Source: Candidatus Dojkabacteria bacterium
GTDB taxonomy: Bacteria; Patescibacteriota; Dojkabacteria; SC72; JAHDCA01
Assembly (NCBI GenBank): GCA_030583845.1
Contig: CP129478.1
Location: 587,686-651,685 of the forward strand
DNA: 64,000 nucleotides
Direction of reading: 5' to 3'
Part shown: positions 13,164 to 36,567 of the stretch, one piece after another
How the letters are laid out: each line of letters begins with the position of its first letter
Position numbering within the stretch: position 1 is the stretch's first letter
Position numbers and translations under genes: made by a program
Notes under the pieces: generated by a model
Database searches by the model: none
What the model was told of the DNA's origin: nothing
What the model saw: only the letters and a program-made list of their open reading frames with translations

Positions 13164-13250
13164 TTCTACGTTAATCTGTCCAATGATGAAATCTCATCTA
13201 AAGCACTGCTATTGTGCTATGTGCGAAATTTATGTTAGATTATAAGGAAT

Positions 13251-13514: not shown

Positions 13515-13560
13515 CAAGGGCTTTTTTACACTTCCCTTTATAACTTCCACCAAAGATGCA

Positions 13561-13721
13561 CCCGCCAACCTATAATGCGTGGCATTTCACGGCTCATCAA
13601 GTAAAATTAATGAGCAAGTATAATGCGGGATTTATTAAACGATGAGCCTTTGTGAGCTACACTCTGGTTGCTCGGTTAATGAAAAGTGCGTGATCTACGC
13701 GTTATAGGTTAGCGGGGGCGG
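13561..13721 (+). promoter_or_regulatory. Long imperfect inverted repeat (family B palindromic element) forming a structured rpsO-pnp intergenic leader.
   Basis: The left arm CCCGCCAACCTATAATGCGT (13561-13580) pairs with the right arm ACGCGTTATAGGTTAGCGGGGGCGG (13697-13721). An inner hairpin GGCTCATC (13591-13598) pairs with GATGAGCC (13641-13648). TATAATGCG occurs twice, at 13571-13579 and 13619-13627. Confidence 0.5.
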
Positions 13722-13752
13722 TAAAGATTAATTTATTCAAAATATTATTTAA

Positions 13753-16032: not shown

Positions 16033-16037
16033 GCTGA

Positions 16038-16502
16038 GTGGTTGAGGTACGTGGGGATGGTAAGGGGCCAAGCTTAAGATTCGAAGAGACACCGGTGTAT
16101 AAGTACGCCGGTGTTGTTTTTTGTGATGTGGCACCCTGTGAGCGAGAGCATGGGATTGAAGTGTATGTTGACGTCGCTCGGGTTGGTTATCCGCTAAGGG
16201 AGCAGCTAGTCGATAGCATACTTACTGCCAAAGCATCACCTGGTGATCTGATTGTCGATCCTTTGCACTACCAAACATTATTACCAATGTCAGAATTATC
16301 GTGGTATGAGAAAGTGTGGAGTGGTAAAGGCTGGATTTTTCGAAGCGAACTTTGGGCATTTGGGTCCCCTTATGCTCTGTTTACAGTACGGTTTAAGGAT
16401 GGAGTAAAGCTAGAACTGTTTCAGTCAGCATATCCTGGGCTTTGCCATCAGATTCACTTGGGGTATCTTCGGTCGAATGGGTATAAAGGGGTGTATATGT
16501 AG
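16038..16502 (+). CDS. Hypothetical protein.
   Basis: 154-aa ORF directly downstream of pnp. No recognisable motif was seen, and it is followed by a strong terminator. Confidence 0.3.
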   Translation: MVEVRGDGKGPSLRFEETPVYKYAGVVFCDVAPCEREHGIEVYVDVARVGYPLREQLVDSILTAKASPGDLIVDPLHYQTLLPMSELSWYEKVWSGKGWIFRSELWAFGSPYALFTVRFKDGVKLELFQSAYPGLCHQIHLGYLRSNGYKGVYM

Positions 16503-16590
16503 AGTAGAGGATTCTTTAGCGCTTTATTAATTTGCTACAGTCTATAAGGCTTGAGAAGTAGATATTTAACTGTTAGAATTGCACAACCTA

Positions 16591-16622
16591 CCCCCAGTAC
16601 TGGTGACTGGGGGTTCTTTTTT
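16591..16622 (+). terminator. Rho-independent terminator.
   Basis: CCCCCAGT-actggtg-ACTGGGGG hairpin followed by TTCTTTTTT. Confidence 0.7.
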
Positions 16623-16872
16623 ATATCTGAATAGTCAAACCTTTAGATCTTACAGAGATACGGACTGTCCCTTTTTATACCATTAGTTGTGAAGCATACC
16701 CTTTTCCATTCTCATAAAAGCTATGTGGTAGATATAACGACAGACCTCGACGGGATAGTTGAGGCGGAATAGACTAAGAATATTATAGTTAGCTTCCGGT
16801 CAGGCTTCTGCCTAAACAGGTGGGGTGCAGTCTTATTTTAACTCTCCTGTATTGGTTTACACCCTATAGTAT

Positions 16873-16919
16873 TGACATCCGTTAAATTTGTTGCTAAATT
16901 TATGTTGTCTAGATACAAT
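16873..16919 (+). promoter_or_regulatory. Candidate promoter(s) for hicB. The -10 box lies 6 nt from the ATG, so the transcript is probably leaderless.
   Basis: TTGACA at 16873-16878. TTGCTA followed by a 17-nt spacer and TACAAT at 16914-16919. The ATG is at 16926. Confidence 0.3.
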
Positions 16920-16925
16920 AAATAG

Positions 16926-17267
16926 ATGATGGACATACCGGAAATAATAGATACAATTAAATATGGTGTCCTCAAAATGGAGTTACCCCCACTAAATATC
17001 CCTAACAGTATTAGGCTCGAGTTCAAAACGGATCGTACAACTGGGCTGACATGGGCGACATCACCCGATCTGCCAGCTTTCGTAGTAACTGGATACTCCA
17101 ATGAAGAGATTTTAAAGGAGACATATGAGACTCTTTTAGTGTACTTTGATGTACCTACATATTTCGCTAAAAGAATGAATGATTACGGGGAAATAACTCT
17201 CCAGAATGGCGAAAAAGTCAGAATCACGGATGTAAAAATTCCCGAAAATTTAAACTATGCCAAATGA
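16926..17267 (+). CDS. hicB: HicB-family antitoxin (UPF0150/RNase H-like fold).
   Basis: ATSPDLPAFVVTGYSNEEILKETYETLLVYFD matches the HicB pattern FPDLPGC.T.G.T.EEA..NA.EAL. It overlaps the downstream hicA by 11 nt. Confidence 0.6.
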   Translation: MMDIPEIIDTIKYGVLKMELPPLNIPNSIRLEFKTDRTTGLTWATSPDLPAFVVTGYSNEEILKETYETLLVYFDVPTYFAKRMNDYGEITLQNGEKVRITDVKIPENLNYAK

Positions 17268-17526
17268 TATCAAGCTCCCAAATAGCACTAAGGAGTGTAT
17301 TAGACTACTTGAATCATTAGATTTTACTAGAAAGAGGAATGTCGGGAAAGGAAAACATCAGTACAAGTATGTTCATCCAGTACGTCGGTGTAATTGTGAC
17401 AATGAAAGGCCTTTCATTATAATCCCAACCCATTTTTACAAACAGTTGGGGAAGGATATCTGCAAGAAACTTATATGTTACGGGTATTCATGGGAGGAGA
17501 TACGGGGTGCCTGCCGTTCTAATTAG
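17257..17526 (+). CDS. hicA: HicA-family mRNA interferase toxin.
   Basis: ECIRLLESLDFTRKRNVGKGKHQYKYVHP...IIIPTHF.KQLGKDICKKLI fits the HicA/YcfA pattern (L..L...GF...R..GSHH....HP......P.H). Confidence 0.6.
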   Translation: MPNDIKLPNSTKECIRLLESLDFTRKRNVGKGKHQYKYVHPVRRCNCDNERPFIIIPTHFYKQLGKDICKKLICYGYSWEEIRGACRSN

Positions 17527-17542
17527 CTATTTATAAGTAGGG

Positions 17543-18559
17543 CTATACGACCTTCTTTATTTTCACTATAAAGAATGCCTGCATCCTTGATCCAGGAATA
17601 ACCCTGATTGCCTTCCTAAGCTCTCGGTCATAGAAATTGCCGCTCCATTTCGTAATTCCTGAAGTCACAAACGATCGATAATCATCAAATTTTGCATCAC
17701 CTGTGATAGGGATCTCAAGAATCTCTACATCCTTGCGCAACCTTAGAAGCCTAGTGACAACACCCTCATTTTCATCTGGCTCCAATGTGCATGTTGAGTA
17801 CACCATCTCGCCACCAGGCTTGAGTGCATCAAATGCTGATAATATCAATCGTTCCTGTACTTTGACCATTGCCTTGATCTTCTTTATATTCCAGAATCGC
17901 AACGGCTTCTCACCTTTCAGGTAGATCATCCCTTCGCCGCTACATGGGGCGTCGAGCAAAATCTTGCTGAATTTATTCTGGTGGGTGTGGCCAAGCTTGG
18001 CTGCATCACCGATGGTTACTTTTGCATTGGTGACATGGAATTCGCTAAGAACTCGCTTCAAAGAACTAAGTCGCTGAAAATTCTCGTCGTTGGCAATAAT
18101 TTCGCCTTTGTTGTTCATCATTGCTGCGAGCTGTGTGGTCTTGCTGCCCGGTGCTGCACACATATCGAGCACATAATCGCCCTCGCTTGGGTTGAGGATC
18201 ACTCCAGGGAGCATGCTTGATAAATTCTGGATGTAGAAAAGCCCTTTGCGGTACTCCTCCATCTTTCCCAGCTCAGATTTATCTTTATTCGTGACTATAA
18301 AAGTATGCTTCGACCATGGAACTTGCTCGAGCTGTATCCCTTTGGATAGCAGCTTTTTCTCAATATCGTCTGGGTTAGCTGCGAGATTGTTCAGGCGAAT
18401 AGTGGATACCGTGCGCTGGCTAAAATGGTTGCGCACATCTTTTTTCGACATTTTTAGAATGCTTGCGAGTCGTGATAAGAAGATCTCTTCTTTTGTGAAA
18501 AATCGCTCCTCTTGCTGCTTTCCTCGCTTCTGTTTGTAGTTTGACCTAGTTCTTTTCAT
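17543..18559 (-). CDS. rsmB: rRNA cytosine-C5 methyltransferase, RsmB/RsmF (NOL1/NOP2/Sun) family.
   Basis: DMCAAPGSKT (AdoMet motif I) and DAPCSGEG (motif IV catalytic Cys). Confidence 0.8.
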   Translation of the reverse strand: MKRTRSNYKQKRGKQQEERFFTKEEIFLSRLASILKMSKKDVRNHFSQRTVSTIRLNNLAANPDDIEKKLLSKGIQLEQVPWSKHTFIVTNKDKSELGKMEEYRKGLFYIQNLSSMLPGVILNPSEGDYVLDMCAAPGSKTTQLAAMMNNKGEIIANDENFQRLSSLKRVLSEFHVTNAKVTIGDAAKLGHTHQNKFSKILLDAPCSGEGMIYLKGEKPLRFWNIKKIKAMVKVQERLILSAFDALKPGGEMVYSTCTLEPDENEGVVTRLLRLRKDVEILEIPITGDAKFDDYRSFVTSGITKWSGNFYDRELRKAIRVIPGSRMQAFFIVKIKKVV

Positions 18560-18612
18560 TGCTGTTTTACTAAATTGGGTAAGCCCAATATTATTGTTGT
18601 GATTATATTATA

Positions 18613-19356
18613 CTAGAGGGCTTTTTGCACGTACTTAATTATAGAGATTAGCATCAGTGCAGGAGTCTCGGTTCTCAGCATATTTCCCTTCAGGTTAACG
18701 AATTGAAAGCCTAGTCCTCGCAATTTCGCGATATCTGCTGCACTCCAGCCCTTTTCCGGACCAATCGCTATGGTGAAATCGGAGCTGCTGTGCTTTTCAT
18801 TGACGTATTCATATATGGAAGTGGTATCCATCGGCTCTGTGCTCAAGGCGATGCGGATCTCGCTACTAGCTTGAGGTAGGCGAAGATTTTCTAGCTTTTG
18901 CAATCGCTCTAGCTGTGGTGGAGTGGTGGTACGGCTTTGTATCACCGCATCGTTAACAATTTTCGACCAGAGGCCCTCTTTCTTCTGATACTTCTCGAAT
19001 TTCAGCAGGCAAAGCTCGGAGTGAATCGGTAAAATTTGTGTCGCCCCAAGCTCCACGGCTTTCTCTAGGAAGAAATTGAACTTGCTCTCATTTGAAGCTG
19101 CTTGCATGACAGTAATTTTGTGACTCGATCGCGGCATTTGCGAAATTTCTTTGCTAAGCTGCTTCATCACCTCTATCTCAACAGTGGCCTTGTCAATGAA
19201 AACAACAGTCGCGAGAAAACTTCCTGAGGGTGAGTCGACTTCTACTGTGTCTTCGAGTGCGACATCTTCCTGATTAATCAATATATCGCTGTCTCTATCT
19301 GATAGATTCGCAATATCCCCAGTCGAGATTTTGTGCGGTATGTAGACTTTCTTCAT
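18613..19356 (-). CDS. rsmE: 16S rRNA (uracil1498-N3)-methyltransferase RsmE.
   Basis: C-terminal GPEKGWSAADI...LGF..V.LKGNMLRTETPALMLISII matches the RsmE signature GPEGGWS...LR.ETA. Confidence 0.8.
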   Translation of the reverse strand: MKKVYIPHKISTGDIANLSDRDSDILINQEDVALEDTVEVDSPSGSFLATVVFIDKATVEIEVMKQLSKEISQMPRSSHKITVMQAASNESKFNFFLEKAVELGATQILPIHSELCLLKFEKYQKKEGLWSKIVNDAVIQSRTTTPPQLERLQKLENLRLPQASSEIRIALSTEPMDTTSIYEYVNEKHSSSDFTIAIGPEKGWSAADIAKLRGLGFQFVNLKGNMLRTETPALMLISIIKYVQKAL

Positions 19357-19376
19357 ATTCGGTCATCCCTAAGTTG

Positions 19377-19414
19377 CTCTGAGATTAAGAGCTCAGACCC
19401 GATCGGGTCTGAGC
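19377..19414. promoter_or_regulatory. Palindromic operator-like array in the divergent rsmE / membrane-protein intergenic region.
   Basis: Perfect 24-bp palindrome GCTCAGACCCGATCGGGTCTGAGC at 19391-19414. A third TCTGAG half-site lies at 19377-19382, about 20 bp from the rsmE start codon. Confidence 0.4.
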
Positions 19415-19529
19415 GATTGAGCTATTCCTTATGACTATAGCAGAAATTAAGAAACCTTTATCATTAAGGTTACGAAAAAATAAATCTGGCGTATACTTCA
19501 ACAGTAGAATATAACTTTTATTTATAAGG

Positions 19530-21692
19530 TTGCAGCATATGAACGGGAAGAATGAATCCACCAAGGCTAAAAATAGCCACGAGTCCCAGGATAAGCAGGA
19601 AGGTCGCGTAACTAAGGGTAGCGATAGTAAGGGCTCAAACATCTATGCAACTTACGCATTACTCTCTGGACTCTTTCTTGGACTTATCTCAGCATATCTA
19701 TTCTTCTGGAAGGTCCCTGGAGTATCGGTTTCACTTTTCGCACTCGTAGCAATCGGTGTTGTGCTACTTCCTCTATTAACCCTCGGTGGCAAAGAAATTA
19801 TGAAGAGAGTCGGCTGGAATGCACTTCCAGCTATGCTCGGCTTATCACTAGCCTTTGTATATCTATACCGACTTAATCCGGCAGCACTAGCACTTGGGGT
19901 GATATTTCTACCGATGGTTTACTCGATGCTTTATGTCGCAGCGTTTAACCCTGAGATGCTAAACAATCTGGGGATATTAAAGACGATGGTATTGCCGTTT
20001 GTCATGGTATTCTCCTGGTTTGTCGACATTGTTAATTTTGTTCAAAATATCAAGCTTGGTGGCATCAAATCCGAGAGGAGCAGGTCAGTCATAAGGCGTG
20101 TACTCCTGGGAACAGCTGTCGCATTGCCGTTCCTGTTGGTTTTCTTAGTAATGTTCACTGCTGCTGACCGGGTCTTTGCAAAATATGTGATGGAGTTCTT
20201 TGAGTCGATCTTTGGCGAGATATTTAAAGATTGGGAAACATTCACATCCTTTGTCGTGAAGGCTATCTTCTCGGCATTGATCGCCATCTACTTCATGGTA
20301 TTTAACTTCTCGCTGTACAATGAGAATTCCGCACTTAGAAAGTATATCCGTAAGACAGAGCAACCTAGTGTGGATATCAAGCGAAACTGGGATGGTTTCA
20401 CTGTCTCAATCTTTCTGACATTAATCAATGTCCTCTTCTTCCTCTTCGTCGCGGTGCAGTTCTACTATCTATTTGCCGGCGAGCAGAACATTCTTGGCTC
20501 GGATGCCAACTTTACATATGCGCAGTATGCTCGACGAGGGTTTGTGGAGCTGCTAATTGTCGCAGTAATCGTGTTCGGCATCGGCTATGTTTTGAATCTC
20601 AAGACAAATGCAGTCGGCAAGCTGCAGAGGATCTTTTTCACAACTAATTATGTTCTGCTTCTACTTTTCACATTCATCATCTCGATCTCGGCTCACATGC
20701 GCTTGGGATTAGTGGAATCAACTTATGGGATCACGGGACTTCGATTGACTGGACACTATATCTACCTGGTTATAGATATTTTGCTGTTACTGTTGGCTGT
20801 CGCGCTTCTGGTGAAGGAGCGAGCGAAATTTGCTGCAGCTGGGACGATTGCTGTCCTATTGGCGTCGATTGCAATCTACTTTATGACACCAATTGATCTA
20901 GTGGTAGCGCAGATGAACTATGAGCGGTTTAAGAATGACGGAAAGGTTGACCTATCATATTTGACAACTCTCTCTGATGAGGCTATCCCAGTGCTTGTGG
21001 CTATGTATTACGATGATGAGATGACTCCGCTTTCTAGAACATTGCTTGGTGCACACCTTGAGCAGAGGTATGACGAGATTAAAGACCAAAGAAAATTATG
21101 GCAGGAGTTCAACATTCTGGATAGATACAATAAGCAGGAGCTGAAGAAGATTGTCGAGGATGAATCGAGTCTTGTCGAGGATGCCGAAGAAGGTCTGCGA
21201 GAATTCTTGGATGATTACTCTGAAGCCTTGGAAGCCGGTAACTATAAAGAGGCTCACGAGAGATTCTGGTCTGAGAATACCAGAGCTATGCGCGATGAGG
21301 AGTTTGATGGTATTACAGTGACTAGTTATGAATACACCTCGATACCTGAATTTGAATACTGGTATCTGCTAGGTGACAATGCTCGCCAGCTTTGGTGGAG
21401 CGATGACAATTATGATTACTGGACTGGCATGTATGTGTATGCAAATATGCGCTATTCATTTGTCGACGACTATGGTTACAGGCAGTATGGCTGTCGAAGC
21501 GATTCGCTGCGCGTGAAGATCGAGAATGGCGAGTGGAAAATTATGTATGCCGATTCATTTAACCTTGGGCGTTTCGAGGATGCGGGTAATTCTAGCTACT
21601 ACTCGGAGAATGATAGCCTCGAGCATTTGAAGGAGTTGCCTGCCCCGGGTGAGTACGATTATGGTTACGATGATTACGACAACTGCTACTAA
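19530..21692 (+). CDS. Polytopic integral membrane protein (about 10 predicted TM helices) with a C-terminal Tyr/Asp/Trp-rich soluble domain.
   Basis: Multiple 20-25-residue hydrophobic stretches. The C-terminal ~230 aa are acidic and aromatic-rich (YDYGYDDYDNCY). Confidence 0.6.
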   Translation: MQHMNGKNESTKAKNSHESQDKQEGRVTKGSDSKGSNIYATYALLSGLFLGLISAYLFFWKVPGVSVSLFALVAIGVVLLPLLTLGGKEIMKRVGWNALPAMLGLSLAFVYLYRLNPAALALGVIFLPMVYSMLYVAAFNPEMLNNLGILKTMVLPFVMVFSWFVDIVNFVQNIKLGGIKSERSRSVIRRVLLGTAVALPFLLVFLVMFTAADRVFAKYVMEFFESIFGEIFKDWETFTSFVVKAIFSALIAIYFMVFNFSLYNENSALRKYIRKTEQPSVDIKRNWDGFTVSIFLTLINVLFFLFVAVQFYYLFAGEQNILGSDANFTYAQYARRGFVELLIVAVIVFGIGYVLNLKTNAVGKLQRIFFTTNYVLLLLFTFIISISAHMRLGLVESTYGITGLRLTGHYIYLVIDILLLLLAVALLVKERAKFAAAGTIAVLLASIAIYFMTPIDLVVAQMNYERFKNDGKVDLSYLTTLSDEAIPVLVAMYYDDEMTPLSRTLLGAHLEQRYDEIKDQRKLWQEFNILDRYNKQELKKIVEDESSLVEDAEEGLREFLDDYSEALEAGNYKEAHERFWSENTRAMRDEEFDGITVTSYEYTSIPEFEYWYLLGDNARQLWWSDDNYDYWTGMYVYANMRYSFVDDYGYRQYGCRSDSLRVKIENGEWKIMYADSFNLGRFEDAGNSSYYSENDSLEHLKELPAPGEYDYGYDDYDNCY

Positions 21693-21742
21693 AACTATGG
21701 TCTAACCAAGTCTGTCTTGCAACCACTATCGGTTTGTTGTAA

Positions 21743-21779
21743 TTTGATAATAAGAAAACATTAAGTTCTTATTATCAAA
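21743..21779 (+). promoter_or_regulatory. Perfect 14-bp inverted repeat abutting the start codon of surface paralog 1.
   Basis: TTTGATAATAAGAA-aacattaag-TTCTTATTATCAAA. It ends 2 nt before the ATG at 21782 and occupies the RBS position. Confidence 0.5.
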
Positions 21780-21781
21780 CA

Positions 21782-23071
21782 ATGCGCAATCGCAAACTTT
21801 TCAAGGTTGTTGTGGTCTCGGCACTCGTGTTATTTGGCGGGTTTGTGGCTTTTCTCGGCTACACCTACTGGCAAACAAGCCCATCCAAATTATACGTCAC
21901 CAACATCACTGACCGTTCCGCTTCCATCTCGTGGGTCAGCAATGAGGCTACAACTGGTGTAGTGATAGTAAAGGAGGGCAACTACATGCTCCCTCTTAAG
22001 CTCACGACTAATGGTAGTACCCGCGCCGGCTTCGATGATAGAGATCGTGCCCGTGCAGAGCTTGAAGCATCCGAGCAGACAGCTGAAAATCTTGCAGATG
22101 GCACAGCCGCCACAGCAGATGATGTCCAGACAGATGTAACGATCAAGAACTATGGCGAGTATTATGTGCACCACGCCACAATCACAAATCTAAAGCCCGA
22201 AACTGAGTACGACTTTATGGTAGGCAATGGCTGGTTCTTCCACAAGGAGAAGAGTGTCGTTGGTGGATCAGACAAATTTACTACTTTCGCACAGCTTGAT
22301 CAGCTTGCCACTCCAAACCCATCATATGGCAAGGTGGTTCTACCTGGTGAAGGTGATGATTACGAATCGAGCACTGACTCAGTGCTTTATATGAGAGTGG
22401 ATTTTGGCGGTAACAAAGTATCTCAGGTATTGTCTTCGGTAACTGCTGAGAATGGATCATGGTATATCGACCTTGGAAATGCTCGAGATGAATTCGGCAA
22501 TGAGGTCGGAGAGGTGACAGAGGATTTAAATGAGAAGGTATGGGTCGAGGGTGGTCCAAATGGTATGGTTGAAGAGTTCGATAACCCTACAAGTCTGGAT
22601 GCGCCGATGCAGATACTGTTCTTAGAAACTGATGAGGTTGAGGCACGAGCGCCTTTTGATTTCTTAGCAGGTGAAGTAAATGCTGAGTGCTGTGAGGCGT
22701 TTACCTGTGTTGATGCCGACGGGACTACTGTAGCTTCGTATGGTGGTGACGATGACTTTGGAGGAGGTAGTTGTGAGACAAGAAAGACAGGCATCTGTCC
22801 GAGTGGTAGTTCGCCTGTAGGTGGAGCGAAGTGTGGTGATACATCATCGACACCTGGAGCTCCTTCGCAGCCTGGTGGTAGTCCAACTGCTCCAGCAGGG
22901 GCATGTTCGAGCCCTCAGTCAGGAAATTGCCACAACAAATACAACACATCGATCCAGATAGGGTCTAATCCGTATAATGCCTGCACTTGCACATTTTTAG
23001 ACAGCTCTAATCCGGCACTGTGCGGTTGCCATTATATTCCCTCCACAGACACCATCTCCTTCCAATCCTGA
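21782..23071 (+). CDS. Surface protein paralog 1, N-terminal part. It has an N-terminal TM anchor, an FN3/purple-acid-phosphatase-N-like domain, and the start of a Cys-rich region. It is probably the 5' portion of one frameshifted gene running to 24399.
   Basis: Hydrophobic KLFKVVVVSALVLFGGFVAFLGY. Domain signature SASISWVS...YYVHHATITNLKPETEYDFMVG. The Cys/Pro-rich tail continues without stops in another frame (23001-23459). Confidence 0.6.
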   Translation: MRNRKLFKVVVVSALVLFGGFVAFLGYTYWQTSPSKLYVTNITDRSASISWVSNEATTGVVIVKEGNYMLPLKLTTNGSTRAGFDDRDRARAELEASEQTAENLADGTAATADDVQTDVTIKNYGEYYVHHATITNLKPETEYDFMVGNGWFFHKEKSVVGGSDKFTTFAQLDQLATPNPSYGKVVLPGEGDDYESSTDSVLYMRVDFGGNKVSQVLSSVTAENGSWYIDLGNARDEFGNEVGEVTEDLNEKVWVEGGPNGMVEEFDNPTSLDAPMQILFLETDEVEARAPFDFLAGEVNAECCEAFTCVDADGTTVASYGGDDDFGGGSCETRKTGICPSGSSPVGGAKCGDTSSTPGAPSQPGGSPTAPAGACSSPQSGNCHNKYNTSIQIGSNPYNACTCTFLDSSNPALCGCHYIPSTDTISFQS

Positions 23072-23217
23072 GCCATCTGAAGTCGTCGCTCAACCCGGTG
23101 TTAACTGTGGCTCGCCTAGCAGTTCTAATCCATGTCCAATAACTGGACCTGAAACAGTCGTACAGGAGCCTCCGGTAGTCACACCGCCACCACCGACAAA
23201 TGATGATCCGATAACTA

Positions 23218-24399
23218 TTGAAGATGCTACAGCAATACCCGTTTCACCTGTTACCGGTGGTGATGAACCGGGCAGGTACGATGGGGTTCAGTGGACTGGT
23301 AGTAATGCGAGGGCAGAATGTGAAAGCTTATGTGATGGTAACTGTGTCGATCACTATAAGCCAGAGACTGAGGTTGGACGGTATTCAACTCCACAGTTCG
23401 CCTCAACTGCATGTGGGAATAATAGCAATTGTTATCCTGGTACTTGCGCCGTTGAGTGAGGCTTCTACTGGTGAATATGCAGCAATCTGTAACTTGTATC
23501 AATACACCGAGTGTGAAGTTTCCGATGAAATGTTTCAGGCTCCATCAGTGGTGAAGAGTGCGTACGCCCAAACCAACCCCGAATCCCAAGAGTTCCTCTT
23601 CGATCCATCAGCAGGCGTCTACTATGTGGGTGAAGCAGGTGTTTACCAGATCGAATATGAGGGTCAAACATATGAAGCAATTGTCGGAGAAGGTGATCAG
23701 AATGTAATACTGTATATCGACGAAAATGCAAATGGTACATACGATGAGGGTACGGACATTCAGATCTCAGTTAACCCATCGGAGCTAAATGTCGCCCAGA
23801 CCGCTGAGGCACACACATATGATTTGCAAGCTGGATTCAACTTTATCCACCTGCCATTTATCCCTGAAGATTACCCGATGGCATCTGACCTGTTGGAGTA
23901 TGTCAACAACGAGTATGGCGGAATTGCTTTCTCGATTGCCAAATTTGACGACACCTGGAAAGTAGTCGGTGCAAATGGTGGCGAGTTCAATGTAAATGAT
24001 TTCCAGCTCGTGCCAGGTGCTGGCTACCTGCTCAAAATAACTCAGGATACTGAGGTTACATTTACGGGGCGGGAGATCCTTTATGAAACTGAAGGCGATA
24101 CTGCGCCAGTATTCTTCGCACCAGGATGGAACTTGGTCGGTATCTACGGTAGTAATGCAGCTGTTTACTCGGCTGAATCCATGATTGACAGCCTAAACGA
24201 GTATGAAACGACAGATTTTACAGCGGTCAACGTCACACGATGGCCACCAGAGAAGGCACGGTATGAAGGATTGCAAAAGGAGATGGGTGAAGATGGAGAG
24301 TACGATGTATATGGCTTCGACTTCCCATTAAATCAGTATACTTCATACTTTGTGAGAATCACTGAAGGTACTGGTAATTGGGAGCCGGCGATGGAGTAG
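23218..24399 (+). CDS. Surface protein paralog 1, C-terminal part with the conserved ~200-aa C-terminal domain. It is probably the 3' portion of the same frameshifted gene.
   Basis: The C-terminus aligns with the C-terminus of 24782-27853: GFNFIHLPFIPEDYPMASDLLEYVNNEY...SIAKFDDTWKVVG...LVPGAGYLLK...PGWNLVGIYGS...YSAESMIDSLNE...TAVNVTRWPPEKARYEGLQKE...YGFDFPLNQYTSYFVRITEGTGNWEP. The real coding start is probably upstream by read-through from frame 3. Confidence 0.6.
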   Translation: MKMLQQYPFHLLPVVMNRAGTMGFSGLVVMRGQNVKAYVMVTVSITISQRLRLDGIQLHSSPQLHVGIIAIVILVLAPLSEASTGEYAAICNLYQYTECEVSDEMFQAPSVVKSAYAQTNPESQEFLFDPSAGVYYVGEAGVYQIEYEGQTYEAIVGEGDQNVILYIDENANGTYDEGTDIQISVNPSELNVAQTAEAHTYDLQAGFNFIHLPFIPEDYPMASDLLEYVNNEYGGIAFSIAKFDDTWKVVGANGGEFNVNDFQLVPGAGYLLKITQDTEVTFTGREILYETEGDTAPVFFAPGWNLVGIYGSNAAVYSAESMIDSLNEYETTDFTAVNVTRWPPEKARYEGLQKEMGEDGEYDVYGFDFPLNQYTSYFVRITEGTGNWEPAME

Positions 24400-24400
24400 G

Positions 24401-24561
24401 GCGCTAACCTATAATGCGTAGAATTGTACGGCTTATTAACCACCCGACCCACTTGCTTCGCAAGTGGTCGGGTGGTCGGGTGGCTAACCTTTATGGACTG
24501 TGATACTCTGATACTATCTACAGATTACAAATAAACTATTAACGCACTATGAGTTAGCGGC
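24401..24561. repeat. Composite nested palindromic element between the two surface paralogs, with family B half-sites flanking a family A hairpin.
   Basis: GCGCTAACCTATAATGCGTAG at 24401-24421. A CCACCCGACCCACTTGC-ttc-GCAAGTGGTCGGGTGG hairpin at 24440-24475. AACGCACTATGAGTTAGCGGC at 24541-24561 is the near reverse complement of the first half-site. Confidence 0.6.
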
Positions 24562-24810
24562 ATGAATAAGAAGAAGTTATACGTAATAATTGGGATTATC
24601 GCACTTTCGCTGGGCATCGCGGCGGTCAGCTTCTGGTTTGTAAATAGCAAAGCTCCCGATGTTGTGAATGTGACCAATGTGACATCGTCATCCGCGACAA
24701 TCTCGTGGGTAAGCGATGAAGCCGAACCCGGCAAGGTAATCGTCAAACGGGGTAATTACCCATTTCCATTCCAGCCGCGTAATGCAGAGCACGCAGGTAT
24801 ATTTCGATGA
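24562..24810 (+). CDS. Surface protein paralog 2, N-terminal fragment (TM anchor plus start of the FN3/PAP-N-like domain). It is truncated by a frameshift and continues in 24782-27853.
   Basis: MNKKKLYVIIGIIALSLGIAAVSFWF then SSATISWVSDEAEPGKVIVKRGNY. The stop is created at GGT ATA TTT CGA TGA. Paralog 1 reads RAGFDDRD at the same point, and here FDDRD continues in the +1 frame. Confidence 0.6.
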   Translation: MNKKKLYVIIGIIALSLGIAAVSFWFVNSKAPDVVNVTNVTSSSATISWVSDEAEPGKVIVKRGNYPFPFQPRNAEHAGIFR

Positions 24811-27800
24811 TAGAGATGTAGCCGAGTGGGAGGTGAATAATGCAAGCAGTGAAAGCGCATCTGTTGAATTACCAGACCTGACCGACGACGAGATCGGACT
24901 ATACTATACCCATCATGTCACTGTAGTCGGTCTTGAGCCCGATACAAAGTATGACTTTATGGTTGGCACTGGCAATTTCTTTTACAGAGCAACCGACCAT
25001 GATGGTGCAAATGAATTTACCACAGCCGCAATAGCCGACGAGATTGATACACCGGACCCTGCCTACGGCAAGATAGTGGCAACCGGTGAGACCATGTCTG
25101 ACCTGATCCCAGTCGTCGATGCAAATGTTTACTTCTATGTTGAGAATTCGTTTGGAGATGTTCTCACCAATAGGATCTCAGCAACATTAAATGATGAGGG
25201 CTCATGGTATCTCGACCTCAATACACTGTATGACAGTGAGGGAGAGGTATTCTTCTCAACTATCCCGGAAGAGGAGACAGAGCTCTACAAAGAGGTTGTT
25301 GAAGTTCATGTCCCAAGTGGTGATATCTACATGAAGCGAATCTCGCCTTCAGAGGACACTCCGGCTGAAGATATGCTGCTAATTGAAGATTATAAGGTTG
25401 AGAAAGCAATTGAAGGTGAACCCCCATTAAGTGGACTAGCATCATCCGCATATGCATGGGATCTTACCTGTCCAAATGGTAAAAAATTGCATGCTGATGC
25501 AGCTGATGAAGCCAGCTTTATAGCCGTATATGGCGCATCTCAAGCCCAATCGAAGTGGGAGCAGGAGGCAAGCGGCTACTGTGGCGACCCGAACACCCCG
25601 AGCTGGCAAGAGGGCCAGCCTACTGTACAGCTTACCGACGAAGTCTGCGCTGTAACCTATACTGAGACAGGCGCATTTGGCTCTAACGATGGCTGTGAGT
25701 ATAACTGTGTAGGTATGGGGCATAGAACCATAGGTGGTGATTGTAAGAATGAATGGGGTAATGGCTCCTACTGCCAGAAGAAAGATCCAAACTGTGGAAC
25801 TGTGTGCGTAGGTGGTGAAGTATGTAAGCAGGGAGATTTCTGTATTTCTGGTGATTATCAGTGCTGCACTGCAGGATGTAATGTGAGAGGCTCCGAGGGT
25901 GGTAGCTCAGGCTCTGGAAATGGGTCTGGTACTCCTACCAATCCATCTGTGTGCCCTAACAAGAAGCCTGACAATGCAACTGAGAGGTGTGGTGAAGATA
26001 ATGTCTGTAATACTGGTGAGTGGTGTGGAGACTTGAATGGTGTTAGCTGTAAGTGCGGTGAAGGGACTGTCGAGTGTGGGATGGTGTGTACACAGTCGAT
26101 CTCCGAAGGCAAGGTAGCTGTAAAAGTATGTTGCCTGTATCATGGTGTGCCATCGCTATTGACGAACTATACAGGGGAATGTCCAATAGGCTGGCAAGAG
26201 GGAACTCAGAACCAATGCAAGACAACGGCGGGTACGTTGCCAACAGAGCCTGTGTGTTGTAAACCTCCAAGTGGCGAGGATATATGGATGTATACTCCAT
26301 CGGGACAGTGTGAAGCGCCACTGGTTTCATCAACTTGTCCAGCCAAGCCTAAGCCTGTACCTCTGCCAATCAATCAATCAACTCCTGCTCCAGTCGTGAC
26401 AAGCGGCAGTGAGTATACAAACACATGCACTGTCGAGCCTAATCAGAGATGTGGTGATTGTAAAGGGCAGGTAGGTGAGGCAAATGGCATAACTTATATG
26501 TGTACAGATATTGGAGCCGGTAGCTTCTTATATTGGTGGAAAGCTGTTGTGCCTGCTGGTGAGAGATGTCCTGATGGAAATGAGTGTATATGTGTAACTA
26601 GAGGCGGTGATGGTTCGATCGAACATTACTCTGGTGACCACAATTGCAATTCTTTAGCGCAGCCTGCTGGATCGCTTACTCCGATAGGTAACAACCAGCA
26701 GTGTCCCGCGGACAGCAACGGATGCTTCTGTGATACTCAAAATGGATACATATATCCTGGCTCATGGTGTGGATATGCCGTCTCATGTGACGCCAATAAC
26801 GTCGGAAGCGTGTGTAATAACGATGGCACAACATGTGAATTCACTGAAGGACAAACGGCTACATATACTACGTTAGGTGGAGATACCAAGACTATGCCGT
26901 GGGATGAATGTCAAAATACCCCTGAGTGTATCAACGGCTATCCACAAGTTCGTTCAGGTGAATATACATGCACTGGTCCGACAGCTTCATCTTTGGACAA
27001 CGGGTCTGACCTCATCTCAGAAGCTAGCACAGCTGTGCTTGGTGCGGGAACGGGTAGGTCGGTCAAAGTGTCTCCTCAAAACAACGCTGTAGCTATAGAT
27101 GATAGTGGAATATATTGTACCGCTGTCGATGCTCAGGAGTACTGCTTCGAATTAACCGATGCAGCAGAAAATATCCTTTACGCTGATCTAAACGGTAATA
27201 ATACCTACGAAGAAGGTACTGATTTACTGGTCTCTCAGGATGGTAGAGAGCTTGAGCTCCAACAGCAAAATACCACCTTCGACTACCAGATGGTGAAAGG
27301 ATTCAATTTCGTCTCGTTCCCATTTGTTAACGCAAGCTATATGGCTACAGCTTCTGATCTACTGACCTATCTGAATTCCGAATATAGCAATGGTTTCTAC
27401 TCCATCGCGAAATTTGAAGCCGGTCGTTGGAGAATTGTTGGGAATAGAGAAGGCGACAACTATGGCTCAGAGGACTTCCCATTGGTTCCAGGAGAGGGAT
27501 ACCTGTTTAAAGCCAATCTTGACATCTTAATTTCATTAAGTGGTCAGCGAATTACAGAGCCAGTCCCAGTGTATATAGCAACAGGCTGGAACCTAATCGG
27601 TGTTAATAGCGGTAGCGATGAATCCAAATACACAGCTGAAAGCCTAATTGACGACGTTAACTCAACCGAGGGACTCACCGCAGTGAACCTATCGCGCTGG
27701 TCAACCAGCAAAGCCCGCTACGAAGGCCTACAGAAAGAAGATGTTGATGGCACTGCACAGGTTTATGGTTTCGACTTCCCGGTCGACAACCGTAGCTCAT

Positions 27801-27853
27801 ACTTCTTGAGAATCGTTGAAGGTGAGGGACTTTGGACACCCGACGCACAATAG
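24782..27853 (+). CDS. Surface protein paralog 2, main part. It has the rest of the FN3/PAP-N-like domain, a ~550-aa Cys-rich region (more than 60 Cys) and the conserved C-terminal domain.
   Basis: YYTHHVTVVGLEPDTKYDFMVGTGNFFY completes the domain. Cys-rich repeats read CxxGxxC...CC. The C-terminus is GFNFVSFPFVNASYMATASDLLTYLNSEY...GWNLIGVNSGS...KARYEGLQKE...YGFDFPVDNRSSYFLRIVEGEGLWTP. Confidence 0.65.
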   Translation: MQSTQVYFDDRDVAEWEVNNASSESASVELPDLTDDEIGLYYTHHVTVVGLEPDTKYDFMVGTGNFFYRATDHDGANEFTTAAIADEIDTPDPAYGKIVATGETMSDLIPVVDANVYFYVENSFGDVLTNRISATLNDEGSWYLDLNTLYDSEGEVFFSTIPEEETELYKEVVEVHVPSGDIYMKRISPSEDTPAEDMLLIEDYKVEKAIEGEPPLSGLASSAYAWDLTCPNGKKLHADAADEASFIAVYGASQAQSKWEQEASGYCGDPNTPSWQEGQPTVQLTDEVCAVTYTETGAFGSNDGCEYNCVGMGHRTIGGDCKNEWGNGSYCQKKDPNCGTVCVGGEVCKQGDFCISGDYQCCTAGCNVRGSEGGSSGSGNGSGTPTNPSVCPNKKPDNATERCGEDNVCNTGEWCGDLNGVSCKCGEGTVECGMVCTQSISEGKVAVKVCCLYHGVPSLLTNYTGECPIGWQEGTQNQCKTTAGTLPTEPVCCKPPSGEDIWMYTPSGQCEAPLVSSTCPAKPKPVPLPINQSTPAPVVTSGSEYTNTCTVEPNQRCGDCKGQVGEANGITYMCTDIGAGSFLYWWKAVVPAGERCPDGNECICVTRGGDGSIEHYSGDHNCNSLAQPAGSLTPIGNNQQCPADSNGCFCDTQNGYIYPGSWCGYAVSCDANNVGSVCNNDGTTCEFTEGQTATYTTLGGDTKTMPWDECQNTPECINGYPQVRSGEYTCTGPTASSLDNGSDLISEASTAVLGAGTGRSVKVSPQNNAVAIDDSGIYCTAVDAQEYCFELTDAAENILYADLNGNNTYEEGTDLLVSQDGRELELQQQNTTFDYQMVKGFNFVSFPFVNASYMATASDLLTYLNSEYSNGFYSIAKFEAGRWRIVGNREGDNYGSEDFPLVPGEGYLFKANLDILISLSGQRITEPVPVYIATGWNLIGVNSGSDESKYTAESLIDDVNSTEGLTAVNLSRWSTSKARYEGLQKEDVDGTAQVYGFDFPVDNRSSYFLRIVEGEGLWTPDAQ

Positions 27854-27896
27854 ATTAAAATCAAGGTAGAAATAAATTATTTACATGATTAGTTAA

Positions 27897-28232
27897 ATGT
27901 TAAATCAGATTCCCGCAGAATTTTGGATGGTTATTATCTCAGTCCTGACACTGTTCCTGGTATTTATCATGTACCAAATTGCCAACCTGTTGAAGGAAAG
28001 CACCAAGACTATGGCCGAGACAACCAAAGTTGTTACAGAGCTCCAGGATACAGTGAAGAAAGCCAATCTAGTGCTAGAGGATGCAGCAGAAGTTGTCTCA
28101 ATGACAAAAACCACTGTCGAAGAGGTACAGGATAACGTGGTGACTCCAGTCATTAAGATAGCTTCGATCATCGGTATGGTCTCAGATATTGTAGATAGCT
28201 TCACTGGCGGGTTCAAGGGCACCAAGGAGTAG
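27897..28232 (+). CDS. Small membrane-anchored protein, DUF948-like.
   Basis: N-terminal TM WMVIISVLTLFLVFIMYQIANLL followed by a charged coiled-coil-like region. Confidence 0.5.
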   Translation: MLNQIPAEFWMVIISVLTLFLVFIMYQIANLLKESTKTMAETTKVVTELQDTVKKANLVLEDAAEVVSMTKTTVEEVQDNVVTPVIKIASIIGMVSDIVDSFTGGFKGTKE

Positions 28233-28303
28233 CCATATCTTGCGCTGTGAGTATCCTACACGAGTAGACAATTTCTGCTCTGTTTCCTATTATAAAAGCA
28301 GAA

Positions 28304-30214
28304 ATGTACATCACACCTAGGCAGAAAAAAAGGTATATATTCAGATTCACACTTGTCGCTTTAGCCATTCCGCTAGTGGTTTTGGCCATCTATGCTGGTG
28401 TCCAATGGTTTTCAAGCGCTGACACCGAAGCAACTCCCGAGGATGTAGTTATCAGCAACCTCACTACCAGCGCTGTCACATTGAGCTGGACCACGACGGT
28501 GGATGCTAGCTCCAGCGTGAAGATGGTCGAAAGCGGAGATGTCTTCACCGATCCGCGAGGTGCAAGCTCAAGAAGGACCCATTTTGTTGAAGTCACTGGG
28601 CTCGAGCCAGAGACAGAGTATGAGTTCAAAATCACTTCAAATGGCCAGGATTATACCGCAGAGGGTGGAGCTGCATTTAGATTTACCACTGCCCCAGTGA
28701 GCGATGAGGCCTCAGTGCCCTTCCCAGCATATGGGACAATAGAGGGTGCGAATGGAGATGATGCACTTATTTTCTTCGTGGTTGCTGGTGCCACTCAATC
28801 TCTGCCGGTCTCAGCAGTGCCGCAATCAACAGGGAACTGGATCTTGGATCTATCTTCAGTCCGATCACTGGATGGTACTTCATTAATACAGGTCAGCAGC
28901 GATAGCTCTGTTGAGCTTCTGGCAATCGGGCATGACGGGATGGGCTCGAGAGTCACAGGAAAATTTAGCGATCTTTTCGACGAAGAGGGGATGCTTATTG
29001 CGGAATTTTCTCTTCAGTCCGATACCGATGTGATGGCCTACCTACCTGGCGCGTCAAAGATTACGACGATTATTGCTGAGCAGCCACCAGGAGAGGAACC
29101 ACCACCGTCTGAAGAACCACCACCATCTGAAGAGCCGCCTCCATCTGAAGAACCACCACCATCTGAAGAGCCACCTCCTGCTGAGGAGCCGCCACCATCT
29201 AACGACTTTGACCCTGCATCAAGACAGTTCCTGATTCGCGCCGATATCGTGTGGGTTGATATGGTTGAGATAACAGGCGATGGTGCTGCTCCAGTAGTTG
29301 TGACCGGTGAGCAGTCGGTACAGCTTGTTGCACGAAATGACACCAGCTTCTCTGTCGTATGGCTTACAGAAGATGAGGTCCCGGGCTATGTAAGCTATGG
29401 AGAGGATGAAGATGATCTGATCGAAGAGGCGATCGACATTCGCGACACCTTGGTATCGCGCGGAGATTACAGATCACACCTAGTCGAGATATCTGGTCTT
29501 ACCCCTGAGACCATATACTACTTTGAGATACATTCGGGCGACGAGACATACTCGTTGAACGGAGAGCCATATCAACTAGAAACATTTGACACAGTGGTCA
29601 CTCCACCACCATTTAGTACAGCCCAAGGCACAGTATCTGGCTTAGAGAGTTATGACGATGTTGTGGTGCTTGTGCAGCTAAATGATGTTGATGGCGCAGG
29701 TACTGCAGGTGCATCACAGCTTGGAGCTGTAGTCCCTGATGAGAATGGTGCTTGGATCGCAAGCATCGGCGACCTACGAAGCGAAAGTGGCACTGAGTAC
29801 TATGTGTTAGGCGATACAGATGAGGTTACAGCTGAATTGGTTGTATACGCTAATTCTGAGCCAGTCACGATTACAGGTGATGAGATTGAGGATAGTGAGC
29901 TAGCCTTGACTGCCGATCCGCCTACAGAGGGTGGGAGCAGCTACCAGCGAATAGCCTTGCTAAATGATTATGGGGTCTCATCGACCTATGCGGAGTCTCC
30001 AACAAGTGGCGTAGGGGGTGGTGGCCCTGCCGATGTCGATACTGGGAGCGAGATTACTACACCGAAGACCGGTATTGAAGATAACTTGGTAGTGGCTTCA
30101 GCGGTTGGTGGAGGTTTGCTTACGGTTGGGGCGGCTACTTTGTTGGTCGCTTACAGTGGTCGTGGCAAGAAGAAGGGCGTAAACAAGGGCTCTTTGACTA
30201 GTCGGGTCTCATAG
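28304..30214 (+). CDS. Cell-surface protein with an N-terminal TM anchor, two FN3-like domains, (EEPPPS)6 repeats and a C-terminal LPXTG-like sorting signal.
   Basis: FN3 signatures VTLSWTT...THFVEVTGLEPETEYEFKI and SFSVVWLTEDEV...YRSHLVEISGLTPETIYYFEI. The C-terminus reads TPKTG, then a 21-residue hydrophobic stretch, then RGKKKG. Confidence 0.7.
   Translation: MYITPRQKKRYIFRFTLVALAIPLVVLAIYAGVQWFSSADTEATPEDVVISNLTTSAVTLSWTTTVDASSSVKMVESGDVFTDPRGASSRRTHFVEVTGLEPETEYEFKITSNGQDYTAEGGAAFRFTTAPVSDEASVPFPAYGTIEGANGDDALIFFVVAGATQSLPVSAVPQSTGNWILDLSSVRSLDGTSLIQVSSDSSVELLAIGHDGMGSRVTGKFSDLFDEEGMLIAEFSLQSDTDVMAYLPGASKITTIIAEQPPGEEPPPSEEPPPSEEPPPSEEPPPSEEPPPAEEPPPSNDFDPASRQFLIRADIVWVDMVEITGDGAAPVVVTGEQSVQLVARNDTSFSVVWLTEDEVPGYVSYGEDEDDLIEEAIDIRDTLVSRGDYRSHLVEISGLTPETIYYFEIHSGDETYSLNGEPYQLETFDTVVTPPPFSTAQGTVSGLESYDDVVVLVQLNDVDGAGTAGASQLGAVVPDENGAWIASIGDLRSESGTEYYVLGDTDEVTAELVVYANSEPVTITGDEIEDSELALTADPPTEGGSSYQRIALLNDYGVSSTYAESPTSGVGGGGPADVDTGSEITTPKTGIEDNLVVASAVGGGLLTVGAATLLVAYSGRGKKKGVNKGSLTSRVS
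29093..29200 (+). repeat. 18-bp tandem repeat x6 encoding (EEPPPS)6.
   Basis: gaggaaccaccaccgtct and five near-identical in-frame units follow one another. Confidence 0.85.
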
Positions 30215-30282
30215 AGGTTATAACTGATGACTCCTGCAGCTCAATCAAGGCTAATTCTTAATCGTTCCCACACCTATAGCCT

Positions 30283-30311
30283 TGTAAACTTTTTGCCTAA
30301 TCAGTACAATT
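30283..30311 (+). promoter_or_regulatory. Candidate promoter (TTGTAA, 17-nt spacer, TACAAT) for gene 30338.
   Basis: -35 box at 30283-30288 and -10 box at 30306-30311, 26 nt upstream of the ATG. Confidence 0.35.
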
Positions 30312-30337
30312 TGGCAATTTAGCTTCTGTAATATTGA

Positions 30338-31864: not shown

Positions 31865-31882
31865 TATTAAGTAACGCCCAAA

Positions 31883-36554: not shown

Positions 36555-36567
36555 TTAGGAATCAAAT

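Follow-up and report, generated by a model that had tools for sequence, protein, structure and literature searches.

The 64,000 nt stretch of Candidatus Dojkabacteria bacterium DNA analysed here (referred to as the window, to which all positions refer) forms part of a contig of 1,036,382 bp and contains, on its + strand, two adjacent and related genes, designated here as paralog 1 (P1) and paralog 2 (P2). P1 is represented by a frame-2 ORF at 21782-23071, which encodes 429 aa and ends with a TGA stop codon, and by a frame-1 ORF at 23218-24399, which starts with TTG and encodes 393 aa. These ORFs are bridged by a stretch in frame 3 that is free of stop codons from 23001 to 23459 (152 sense codons followed by TGA, with a TAG just before it at 22998-23000). 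Both the ORF ends and the open frame had been reported in a preliminary description of the locus; the coordinates hold, and the translation includes the peptide given there exactly. ATG, GTG and TTG codons were found to be entirely absent from frame 3 across 23001-23459, which rules out that frame 3 of P1 represents an independent gene.

In the two off-frames of 22 genes in the window, stop codons occur at a rate of 0.072 per codon, and the geometric probability of a stop-free run of 152 codons is 1.2e-5 per run. None of the 1842 off-frame stop-free runs reached 152 codons, the longest spanning 148. The open frame-3 stretch thus exceeds chance expectation, in agreement with the earlier view that such a bridge would be very unlikely to arise by chance. 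Furthermore, codon-usage scores favoured frame 2 up to ~22970 and frame 3 over most of ~22970-23270, were ambiguous between frames 1 and 3 at ~23270-23450, and favoured frame 1 beyond ~23390-23420.

Homology divided P1 into three consecutive segments, with a tblastn frame order of 2, 3 and 1. Segment A (frame 2; 21782..23041), delimited by its ORF and by the tblastn match of the orthologues from two fetched loci (L001 and L002), which extends from 21782 to 23041, encodes an N-terminal transmembrane helix, two FN3-like β-sandwich domains and the beginning of the Cys/Pro-rich variable region. As written, frame 2 runs on to the TGA at 23069-23071 and includes an out-of-frame tail of 10 residues (STDTISFQS). 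Segment B (frame 3; 23040..23456; 139 codons), delimited by orthologue alignment, corresponds to a Pro/Cys-rich hypervariable stalk and aligns with the orthologues through motifs such as VAxPGxNCGSPSSSNPCP, VVQEP, DPITI and C..C..G.C; the corrected P1 gave a frame-3 HSP over the same interval (23040-23456). Segment C (frame 1; 23458..24399), which ends with a TAG stop codon at 24397-24399, comprises the end of the variable region and a conserved C-terminal β-rich domain of ~270 aa. This domain exhibited 69-70% identity to the C-termini of the L001 and L002 orthologues, a level similar to that of the neighbouring genes, and 43% identity to the C-terminus of P2.

The 870-aa conceptual protein obtained by joining the three pieces was matched by five orthologues (P0001-P0005; 860-881 aa), all of which are uninterrupted and cross both frame junctions of P1 (J1 and J2) unbroken, at 100% query coverage and 55-61% identity. 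L001 and L002 share a conserved gene order with the window, namely PNPase, rsmF-like, rsmE, DUF4153, P1, P2, a 110-aa gene and P3, with P1 and P2 each present as a single ORF, and three distant homologues (L003-L005) are likewise single ORFs. Across the 22 kb that are syntenic with L001/L002, frame changes were observed only in P1 and P2, and in none of the nine other genes. At J1, J2 and the P2 junction (J3), the orthologues all read through in a single frame. The end-to-end match of the joined P1 with five uninterrupted orthologues indicates one ancestral gene with two +1 shifts. P1 is shown by this comparison to represent a single ancestral gene of ~870 codons that is interrupted, in the sequence analysed here, by two one-base insertions, each causing a +1 shift. 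The single coding sequence proposed earlier is thus borne out, while conserved separate genes with their own starts, which were sought among the orthologues, were not encountered.

J1 (23039..23042) consists of one extra base within ATT CCC TCC ACA G, by which reading shifts by +1 from frame 2 to frame 3. Removal of one C (or the T) restores ATT CCT CCA CAG (I-P-P-Q), with the flanks in the window reading CGCHYIP (frame 2) and PPQTP (frame 3), and the corresponding region of orthologue P0005 in L001 reading CGCYYIPPQVP (TAT ATA CCG CCT CAG). The extra base gives rise to a CCC codon, which is very rare here (1.1 per 1000), the common Pro codons being CCT and CCA. J2 (23448..23459) consists of one extra base within GCC GTT GAG TGA (GCCGTTGAGTGA in the window), which produces a +1 shift from frame 3 to frame 1; its position could be narrowed only to this interval because the orthologues are too divergent there. 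Before J2, frame 3 matches the orthologues through C-x-P-G-T-C (NCYPGTC in the window versus ECLPGSC in P0001), and after J2, frame 1 matches them from ..EASTGEYAAIC.. onwards, with the frame-1 HSP of the L002 orthologue beginning at 23455. Homology therefore places both sites inside the zones previously proposed for the shifts (~23001-23071 and ~23440-23459).

P2 was found to be divided in a similar manner, with a tblastn frame order of 1 and 2, a frameshift that had been overlooked in the preliminary description. Its N-terminal segment (frame 1; 24562..24801), which encodes the transmembrane anchor and the start of the FN3-like domain, is separated by the shift at J3 from the remaining part of the gene. 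Residues 1-72 of the L001/L002 orthologues of P2 align at 64-65% identity with frame 1 of 24562-24777, and their remainder matches frame 2. J3 (24802..24804) consists of an extra T (TT to TTT) in GGT ATA TTT CGA TGA, causing a +1 shift from frame 1 to frame 2. Replacement of TTT by TT yields the single-frame reading ..HAGIFDDRDVAEWE.., in which AGIFDDRD parallels AGFDDRD of P1 and the spacing of the orthologues is regained (FPIVP, eight residues, YDDRD). The main segment (frame 2; 24803..27853) lies within an ORF at 24782-27853 encoding 1023 aa, and the public protein WKZ30743.1 (1023 aa) was called from the internal ATG at 24782, J3 having been missed by the annotation. A 100% identical protein of 1023 aa (P0010) is named 'MAG: fibronectin type III domain-containing protein [Candidatus Dojkabacteria bacterium]', and the P2 orthologues P0011 and P0012 are intact, at 1114 and 1097 aa, respectively. 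A full reading across the shifts would be predicted to contain the trans-frame sequences ..CGCHYIPPQTPSPS.. and ..HAGIFDDRD.., with CGCHYIPPQTPSPSNPEPSEVVAQPGVNCGSPSSSNPCPITGPETVVQEPPVVTPPPPTNDDPITIEDATAIPVSPVTGGDEPGR and GNYPFPFQPR/NAEHAGIFDDR as the predicted junction peptides.

The P1 product was shown to be a membrane-anchored surface protein, consisting of a transmembrane helix, two FN3-like domains, a Cys/Pro-rich hypervariable stalk and a C-terminal β domain. Pfam domain PF16656 (Pur_ac_phosph_N) was detected at residues 36-150 of P1 with a score of 34.7 bits (cut-off 30). The AlphaFold model of orthologue P0001 consists of a helix at residues 4-31 and β domains at 35-280, and residues 607-876, the equivalent of segment C, were also modelled confidently. 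A fold search with the whole P0001 model returned only tandem FN3 matches, confined to the N-terminal part, and a PDB sequence search for the C-terminal domain, which is common to P1, P2 and the orthologues, gave no matches. With PF16656 following the transmembrane helix, and with the shared C-terminal domain, P1 belongs to a family of FN3/PAP-N surface proteins. Proteins of this type are of the exposed and rapidly evolving kind that episymbiotic Patescibacteria would be expected to use for attachment.

The centre of the gene is shuffled among strains as two cassettes, which occur in all four combinations across P0001-P0004 (12-47% versus 91-100% identity), while the cassette flanks remain 80-100% identical; J1 and J2 both lie inside the reshuffled cassettes. 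Logan contigs from four runs (the sequencing runs named for the locus being SRR24881069, DRR779145, DRR779146 and DRR859400) showed 100% identity to the window in three intervals (8613-19410, 19385-23028 and 24803-40214). The intervening stretch 23029-24802 (J1, J2 and J3) was spanned by none of the Logan contigs retrieved, with contig L010 ending at 23028, 11 nt before J1, and contig L006 beginning at 24803, i.e. at J3. A difference between alleles in the T-run would make a de Bruijn graph branch exactly where L006 starts, and this contig break is a hint of some TT/TTT polymorphism in the reads of one sample. An exact repeat of 15 nt, present in both P1 (22031-45) and P2 (24803-17), is not supported as the cause of the break: it is too short for branching at k=31, and a P1/P2 fusion allele would also break contig L011 of the same sample at 22045, yet L011 continues to 22251.

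A full-length or in-frame P1 or P2 of this strain was absent from a collection of 5.8 billion proteins, and exact look-ups of the 429-aa, 82-aa, 391-aa and 152-aa products of the window gave no matches. Searches for the same strain returned three distant relatives only from genome contigs and nothing from metagenome contigs, so that no independent sequence across J1-J3 was found. P0010 is present in the protein collection and absent from the contig index.

On circumstantial grounds, among them the cassette shuffling and the contig ends at 23028 and 24803, which are indirect evidence of heterogeneity at precisely this locus, we regard the insertions as probably, if only modestly so, representing a consensus artefact or collapsed strain heterogeneity, a reading that is favoured over a recent genuine inactivation. 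Co-existing strains would carry different alleles of the hypervariable P1/P2 locus, their reads would have been collapsed into one sequence during assembly of a metagenome-assembled genome that consists of a single contig (1.04 Mb), and consensus or polishing errors at this position would create the one-base insertions, which would then not be fixed biological features. A single contig of such a size usually derives from a long-read or hybrid assembly, in which the errors that remain are mainly single-base indels. Against an artefact, the window elsewhere agrees perfectly with independent assemblies while three indels fall within 1.8 kb, so that a uniform error model fails and a local cause must be assumed. 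The runs at J1 and J3 comprise only 2-3 bases, in contrast to the long homopolymers in which long-read errors concentrate, which likewise argues against an artefact. Of the causes listed in the preliminary description (a decaying pseudogene, strain heterogeneity collapsed in assembly and homopolymer errors), all still belong on the list, although homopolymer error is only weakly apt for runs this short. The TTT at J3 could be one of the real alleles.

The foremost alternative holds that the three insertions are real and either fixed or frequent in this strain, which would make P1 and P2 recently formed pseudogenes. The rapidly evolving surface-protein module to which both belong would then have been lost because selection was relaxed or because an exposed antigen or receptor was selected against. 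We consider this possible, at a probability clearly short of even. The window copies are disrupted while their orthologues are intact, and the confinement of three lesions to two adjacent paralogs with intact neighbour genes fits a module that has lost its function; clustering of lesions in two adjacent, related paralogs is equally expected from real gene decay. Genuine inactivation is also consistent with the very accurate assembly of the flanks (100% identity to independent contigs), and the branch point at J3 in an independent assembly fits a real TT/TTT polymorphism in the population. Furthermore, the P1 fragments are absent from the NCBI proteins, where the neighbour WKZ30743.1 is present, suggesting that the depositor's pipeline may already have called P1 a pseudogene. 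However, no further decay is apparent: with one base deleted per site, P1 is open over 870 codons and P2 over 1096, the sole stop being the terminal one, and no further in-frame stop, as a lesion of older decay, was found in either corrected gene. By a rough estimate from substitution-to-indel ratios, between one and three in-frame stops should also have arisen in the time required for three independent indels. Each of the events is an insertion, counter to the deletion bias that generally characterizes bacterial mutation; pseudogenes are uncommon in streamlined genomes of ~1 Mb, and the disrupted stretch was reproduced by none of the retrieved independent assemblies.

That the shifts are real and exploited, either by +1 frameshifting at short slippery sites (CCC_U, and UUU_C next to UGA) or as a population ON/OFF polymorphism in two tandem hypervariable surface proteins, appears very improbable. 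If true, an organism whose translation apparatus is minimal would possess a recoding or switching device that does without a long repeat tract. The shift sites are not conserved in relatives and have neither a long repeat tract nor a shared motif, and on these grounds neither programmed frameshifting nor phase variation is supported. Nothing that can be read from the sequence would point to cellular read-through of the shifts.

Programmed +1 ribosomal frameshifting, with slippage at CCC-U for J1, on or close to GAG-UGA for J2 and at UUU-C ahead of CGA-UGA for J3, would produce full-length proteins in tuned amounts; it is given very little weight. All three shifts are indeed +1, the three downstream frames are perfectly kept, the P-site tRNA could re-pair at +1 on CCC_U (J1) and UUU_C (J3), and a 0-frame UGA lies at or beside J2 and J3, loosely resembling the CUU-UGA of prfB. 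Conversely, no site is conserved, the protein being encoded in a single frame in all orthologues and distant homologues examined, and no motif common to the three sites and no Shine-Dalgarno-like stimulator upstream of them was found, in a genome in which such motifs are seldom used (8/35 starts). Moreover, CGA is not rare here (10.4 per 1000), and GAG is unable to re-pair at +1. Proximity of a stop codon was discarded as a sign of a programmed shift, as random insertions give the same result (median 5-6 codons; joint probability ~0.09).

Even less credence is given to phase variation, by which reversible slipped-strand mispairing at the shift sites would switch the surface proteins, with the assembly capturing an OFF state. 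Exposed, hypervariable proteins constitute a class that is often phase-variable, J1 and J3 are changes in run length, and a sign of polymorphism was observed exactly at J3 in one sample. The runs (CCC and TTT) nonetheless comprise only 2-3 bases, and known contingency loci reach useful switching rates only with tracts of at least ~7 bases or with several repeat units. Tandem Repeats Finder detected no simple-sequence tract at or near J1, J2 or J3, and none is present at these positions in the orthologues.

The least probable of these accounts, to which we attach almost no weight, is that the stretch encodes two or three separate genes, with N-terminal and C-terminal products of 429 and 393 aa and with GIIAIVILVLAPLSEA, located in frame 1 ahead of J2, providing the C-terminal domain with a signal peptide of its own. 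Several candidate starts do occur in this part of frame 1, as does a hydrophobic stretch with an A-x-A-like site after it, but the split is seen in no relative, the frame-3 piece has no start codon, the internal starts are devoid of the AT-rich leaders that precede real genes here, and no promoter-like site was found on the + strand across 21600-24900. Recoding of TGA was rejected, as many more stops follow the frame-2 TGA at 23069 and TGA is a normal stop codon in the window.

P1 and P2 are ordinary broken genes, or reflect assembly error, in a very variable locus and do not represent a new mechanism. Taken literally, the sequence would yield from P1 only an anchored N-terminal fragment of 429 aa lacking the C-terminal domain, and from P2 a protein lacking its membrane anchor. 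A public single-contig Dojkabacteria genome seemingly carries a broken P1 and an N-terminally truncated P2 (WKZ30743.1), and both records need to be re-examined against the reads before comparative or structural use. The locus marks a family of tandem FN3 proteins anchored in the membrane. Between close strains, their central stalk is reshuffled by cassettes, and this variability is of more interest than the ordinary frameshifts.

Several known systems may be compared with this locus. The +1 frameshifting of prfB (release factor 2) shares the +1 direction, a UGA at or near two of the sites and the re-pairing options CCC_U and UUU_C, whereas the sites described here are not conserved, have no upstream SD-like stimulator and no common sequence, and present no slow codon at J1 or J3. 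The phase-variable contingency loci of Neisseria, Haemophilus and Campylobacter, built for example on homopolymers or short repeats, likewise involve exposed variable proteins and changes in run length, with a hint of polymorphism at one site here, but P1 and P2 possess no simple-sequence tract and their runs of 2-3 bases are far below switching tracts. The 'frameshifted' pseudogene class of NCBI PGAP, taken to include real lesions and assembly indels alike, corresponds in its intact orthologues, in coding that resumes in another frame, in a bridge without a start codon and in correction by single bases. The window differs from that class in having three lesions, each an insertion, of which two affect one gene and the third its adjacent paralog, in the location of all lesions within a stretch not covered by the retrieved independent assemblies, and in a public annotation that apparently treats P2 as an intact, shorter protein. 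Finally, the FN3/purple-acid-phosphatase-N (PAP-N) surface proteins of Dojkabacteria and related Patescibacteria, for which 'fibronectin type III domain-containing protein' is the sole annotation, exhibit the same transmembrane helix followed by a PF16656/FN3-like domain, the same C-terminal domain and the same occurrence as tandem paralogs, and it is by their interruption that the copies in the window differ from them.

P1, a surface-protein gene at 21782–24399, was found to be distributed over three reading frames of the + strand, namely a frame-2 ORF (21782–23071; 429 aa), a frame-3 open stretch running from 23001 to the TGA at 23457–23459 (152 sense codons, with a TAG at 22998–23000 just before it) and a frame-1 ORF (23218–24399; 393 aa, counted from TTG). 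The preliminary description had presented P1 as one CDS split by two shifts; its ORF coordinates proved exact on recheck, and the frame-3 translation was identical to the peptide quoted there. Frame 3 contains no ATG, GTG or TTG over 23001–23459, which precludes translation of the stretch as an independent gene. Across 22 window genes, the two wrong frames contained stops at a rate of 0.072 per codon and stop-free runs of at least 152 codons were absent (0/1842), the geometric expectation for a run of 152 codons being 1.2e-5 per run, so that the opening is, as had been argued, not attributable to chance. The codon-usage score favoured frame 2 up to about 23000, then frame 3, and frame 1 from about 23400–23450 onward. 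Elsewhere in the window, the hsdR gene (8641–11736; type I restriction enzyme R subunit) harbours a same-strand, off-frame open stretch of ~148 codons (9965–10408), the longest wrong-frame run aside from that of P1, and open runs of such size are therefore possible without a frameshift.

P1 was joined as 21782–23038 (frame 2), 23040–23456 (frame 3) and 23461–24396 (frame 1), and the resulting 870-aa protein was searched against a collection of 5.8 billion proteins. Five matches of 860–881 aa were obtained, with 100% of the length covered at 55–61% identity, and the orthologue alignment was unbroken across both shift sites (designated J1 and J2); additional relatives include a 'fibronectin type III domain-containing protein [Candidatus Dojkabacteria bacterium]'. 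The two orthologue loci that were fetched, L001 and L002, match the window in gene order (PNPase, rsmF-like and rsmE methyltransferases, DUF4153 protein, P1, the neighbouring paralog P2, a gene encoding 110 aa and a third FN3 protein), with P1 (878 and 876 aa) and P2 (1114 and 1097 aa) each present as a single ORF. Three distant homologues in reference genomes likewise consist of one ORF each (1032–1113 codons). Conserved split orthologues, the finding that would speak against a single gene, were looked for, and none exist among the relatives examined. Full-cover orthologues, alignment across both junctions and syntenic single ORFs thus show P1 to be one gene and support, overall, the original reading.

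At J1, the orthologue P0005 reads CGCYYIPPQVP (TAT ATA CCG CCT CAG), and the window encodes CGCHYIP in frame 2 followed by PPQTP in frame 3; removal of one base from CCCT (23039–23042) in the sequence CAT TAT ATT CCC TCC ACA G yields ATT CCT CCA CAG. The CCC codon created by the extra base is hardly ever used here (1.1 per 1000), CCT and CCA being the normal proline codons of the genome. At J2, the frame-3 match to the orthologues holds through N-C-Y-P-G-T-C (E-C-L-P-G-S-C in orthologue P0001) and the frame-1 match starts at EASTGEYAAIC, which places the extra base within GCC GTT GAG TGA (23448–23459), an interval rather than a single base, as the orthologues are too divergent there. Since both shifts are +1, they do not compensate for one another.

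P2 (24562–27853) was shown to be frameshifted as well, at a site (J3) absent from the preliminary description. Its first 80 codons, encoding a transmembrane anchor and the start of an FN3 domain, lie in frame 1 of the + strand (24562–24801), and the remainder lies in frame 2 (public ORF 24782–27853). The sequence at J3 is GGT ATA TTT CGA TGA, with an extra T at 24802–24804; with TT in place of TTT, P2 reads HAGIFDDRDVAEWE in frame, parallel to RAGFDDRDRA of P1, and the spacing of both orthologues is regained. The public P2 protein WKZ30743.1 (1023 aa) is 100% identical to the product of the ORF opening at the internal ATG (24782) and thus lacks the ~80-residue N-terminus with the membrane anchor; the third shift is hidden by this annotation. 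Neither P1 fragment is present among NCBI proteins, which suggests that P1 may have been treated as a pseudogene in the annotation. P1 (22031–22045) and P2 (24803–24817) have in common a 15-nt direct repeat without mismatch, TTCGATGATAGAGAT, which encodes FDDRD; the independent contig L006 begins exactly where the second copy does (24803), directly after the T-run of J3.

The sole Pfam match of P1 was a purple-acid-phosphatase-N/FN3-type domain (residues 36–150). The AlphaFold model of P0001, built from 21 sequences, displayed a transmembrane helix (residues 4–31), two confident β-sandwich domains (35–280) matched by tandem FN3 structures, a long low-confidence Cys/Pro-rich region (284–606) within which both J1 and J2 fall, and a confident β-rich C-terminal domain (607–876), for which no solved relative was found by sequence. 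In the central region (~22680–23600 of the window), the four closest orthologues, from closely related strains, carry two cassettes in all four combinations: P0001 equals P0003 and P0002 equals P0004 over alignment columns 301–450 (between-group identity down to 12%), and P0001 resembles P0002 and P0003 resembles P0004 over columns 501–650. Cassette types share 12–47% identity, compared with 80–100% for the flanks, and this arrangement argues for recombinational reshuffling. It indicates that P1 encodes an exposed surface protein with a recombinationally reshuffled central stalk.

Another family paralog, of which the window holds the C-terminal domain only (16–468; 28–32% identical to its P1 and P2 counterparts), leaves the window at its left edge. 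The third family member (28304–30214; 636 aa) is intact, with two FN3/PAP-N domains and an 18-nt tandem repeat (29078–29200) encoding (EEPPPS)n, the length of which could vary among strains. The downstream genes (30338–41078) encode large proteins without Pfam domains, except for a weak TrbC/VirB2 pilin match under the cut-off (31883–33361; E = 1e-4), and the FN3 paralogs might be part of a more extensive gene cluster, of surface or pilus-like type, that is conserved in L001.

Logan contigs of this strain from four runs (SRR24881069, DRR779145, DRR779146 and DRR859400) were 100% identical to the window over 8613–19410, 19385–23028 and 24803–40214, indicating that the assembly is in general very accurate. 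Such nucleotide identity over >10 kb (8613–40214; contigs L006–L013), seen in both SRR and DRR runs and thus across two archives or more, also implies a clonal organism that is widespread in those sample types. Six independent contigs from the four runs end inside a perfect 24-nt palindrome, GCTCAGACCCGATCGGGTCTGAGC (19391–19414), which separates the convergent/divergent rsmE and DUF4153 genes and is probably a bidirectional terminator; the shared contig break at 19385–19410 is due to this palindrome.

Positions 23029–24802, exactly where J1, J2 and J3 are situated, were covered by none of the retrieved contigs, and no Logan run was represented in the protein collection by a full-length P1 or P2 of this strain, whether in frame or not. 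Contig L010 ends 11 nt before J1, and L006 starts at 24803, where a de Bruijn graph would branch if alleles differed at the final T of the J3 T-run. The contig breaks, together with the cassette shuffling, point to co-existing alleles at the P1/P2 locus, from which a long-read or hybrid consensus could pick up single-base indels. This circumstantial support tips modestly in favour of consensus error or collapsed heterogeneity as the origin of J1–J3. Recent genuine inactivation of P1 and P2 would fit the clustering of lesions in two related genes with clean neighbours, yet neither gene carries a further lesion and all three events are insertions, which leaves it a possible but somewhat doubtful explanation.

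Recoding, switching or separate genes are, even taken together, very improbable, as the shifts are conserved in no relative compared, share no common motif, have no detected Shine–Dalgarno-like element upstream, involve a common codon at J3 (CGA after UUU) and are followed by the next stop at short distances, as for random insertions (median 5–6 codons; joint probability ~0.09), and an independent C-terminal gene is likewise unsupported, with no promoter-like site found on the + strand over 21600–24900, internal starts without the AT-rich leaders of genuine genes here and zero split orthologues. No simple-sequence tract was found at J1, J2 or J3 (runs ≤3 bases), making classical slipped-strand phase variation implausible, and programmed shifting or switching found no support at any of these sites. 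Across the whole window, a Shine–Dalgarno-like motif precedes only 8 of 35 gene starts and most leaders are AT-rich, rendering start prediction from ribosome-binding sites unreliable in this genome.

Beyond the preliminary description, the present analysis gives exact positions for the shifts, adds a third one in P2 and characterizes the locus as hypervariable. As a phenomenon, the interruption of P1 and P2, for which consensus error or collapsed heterogeneity is favoured here, is ordinary, a case of a metagenome-assembled genome in which a gene is broken by frameshifts.
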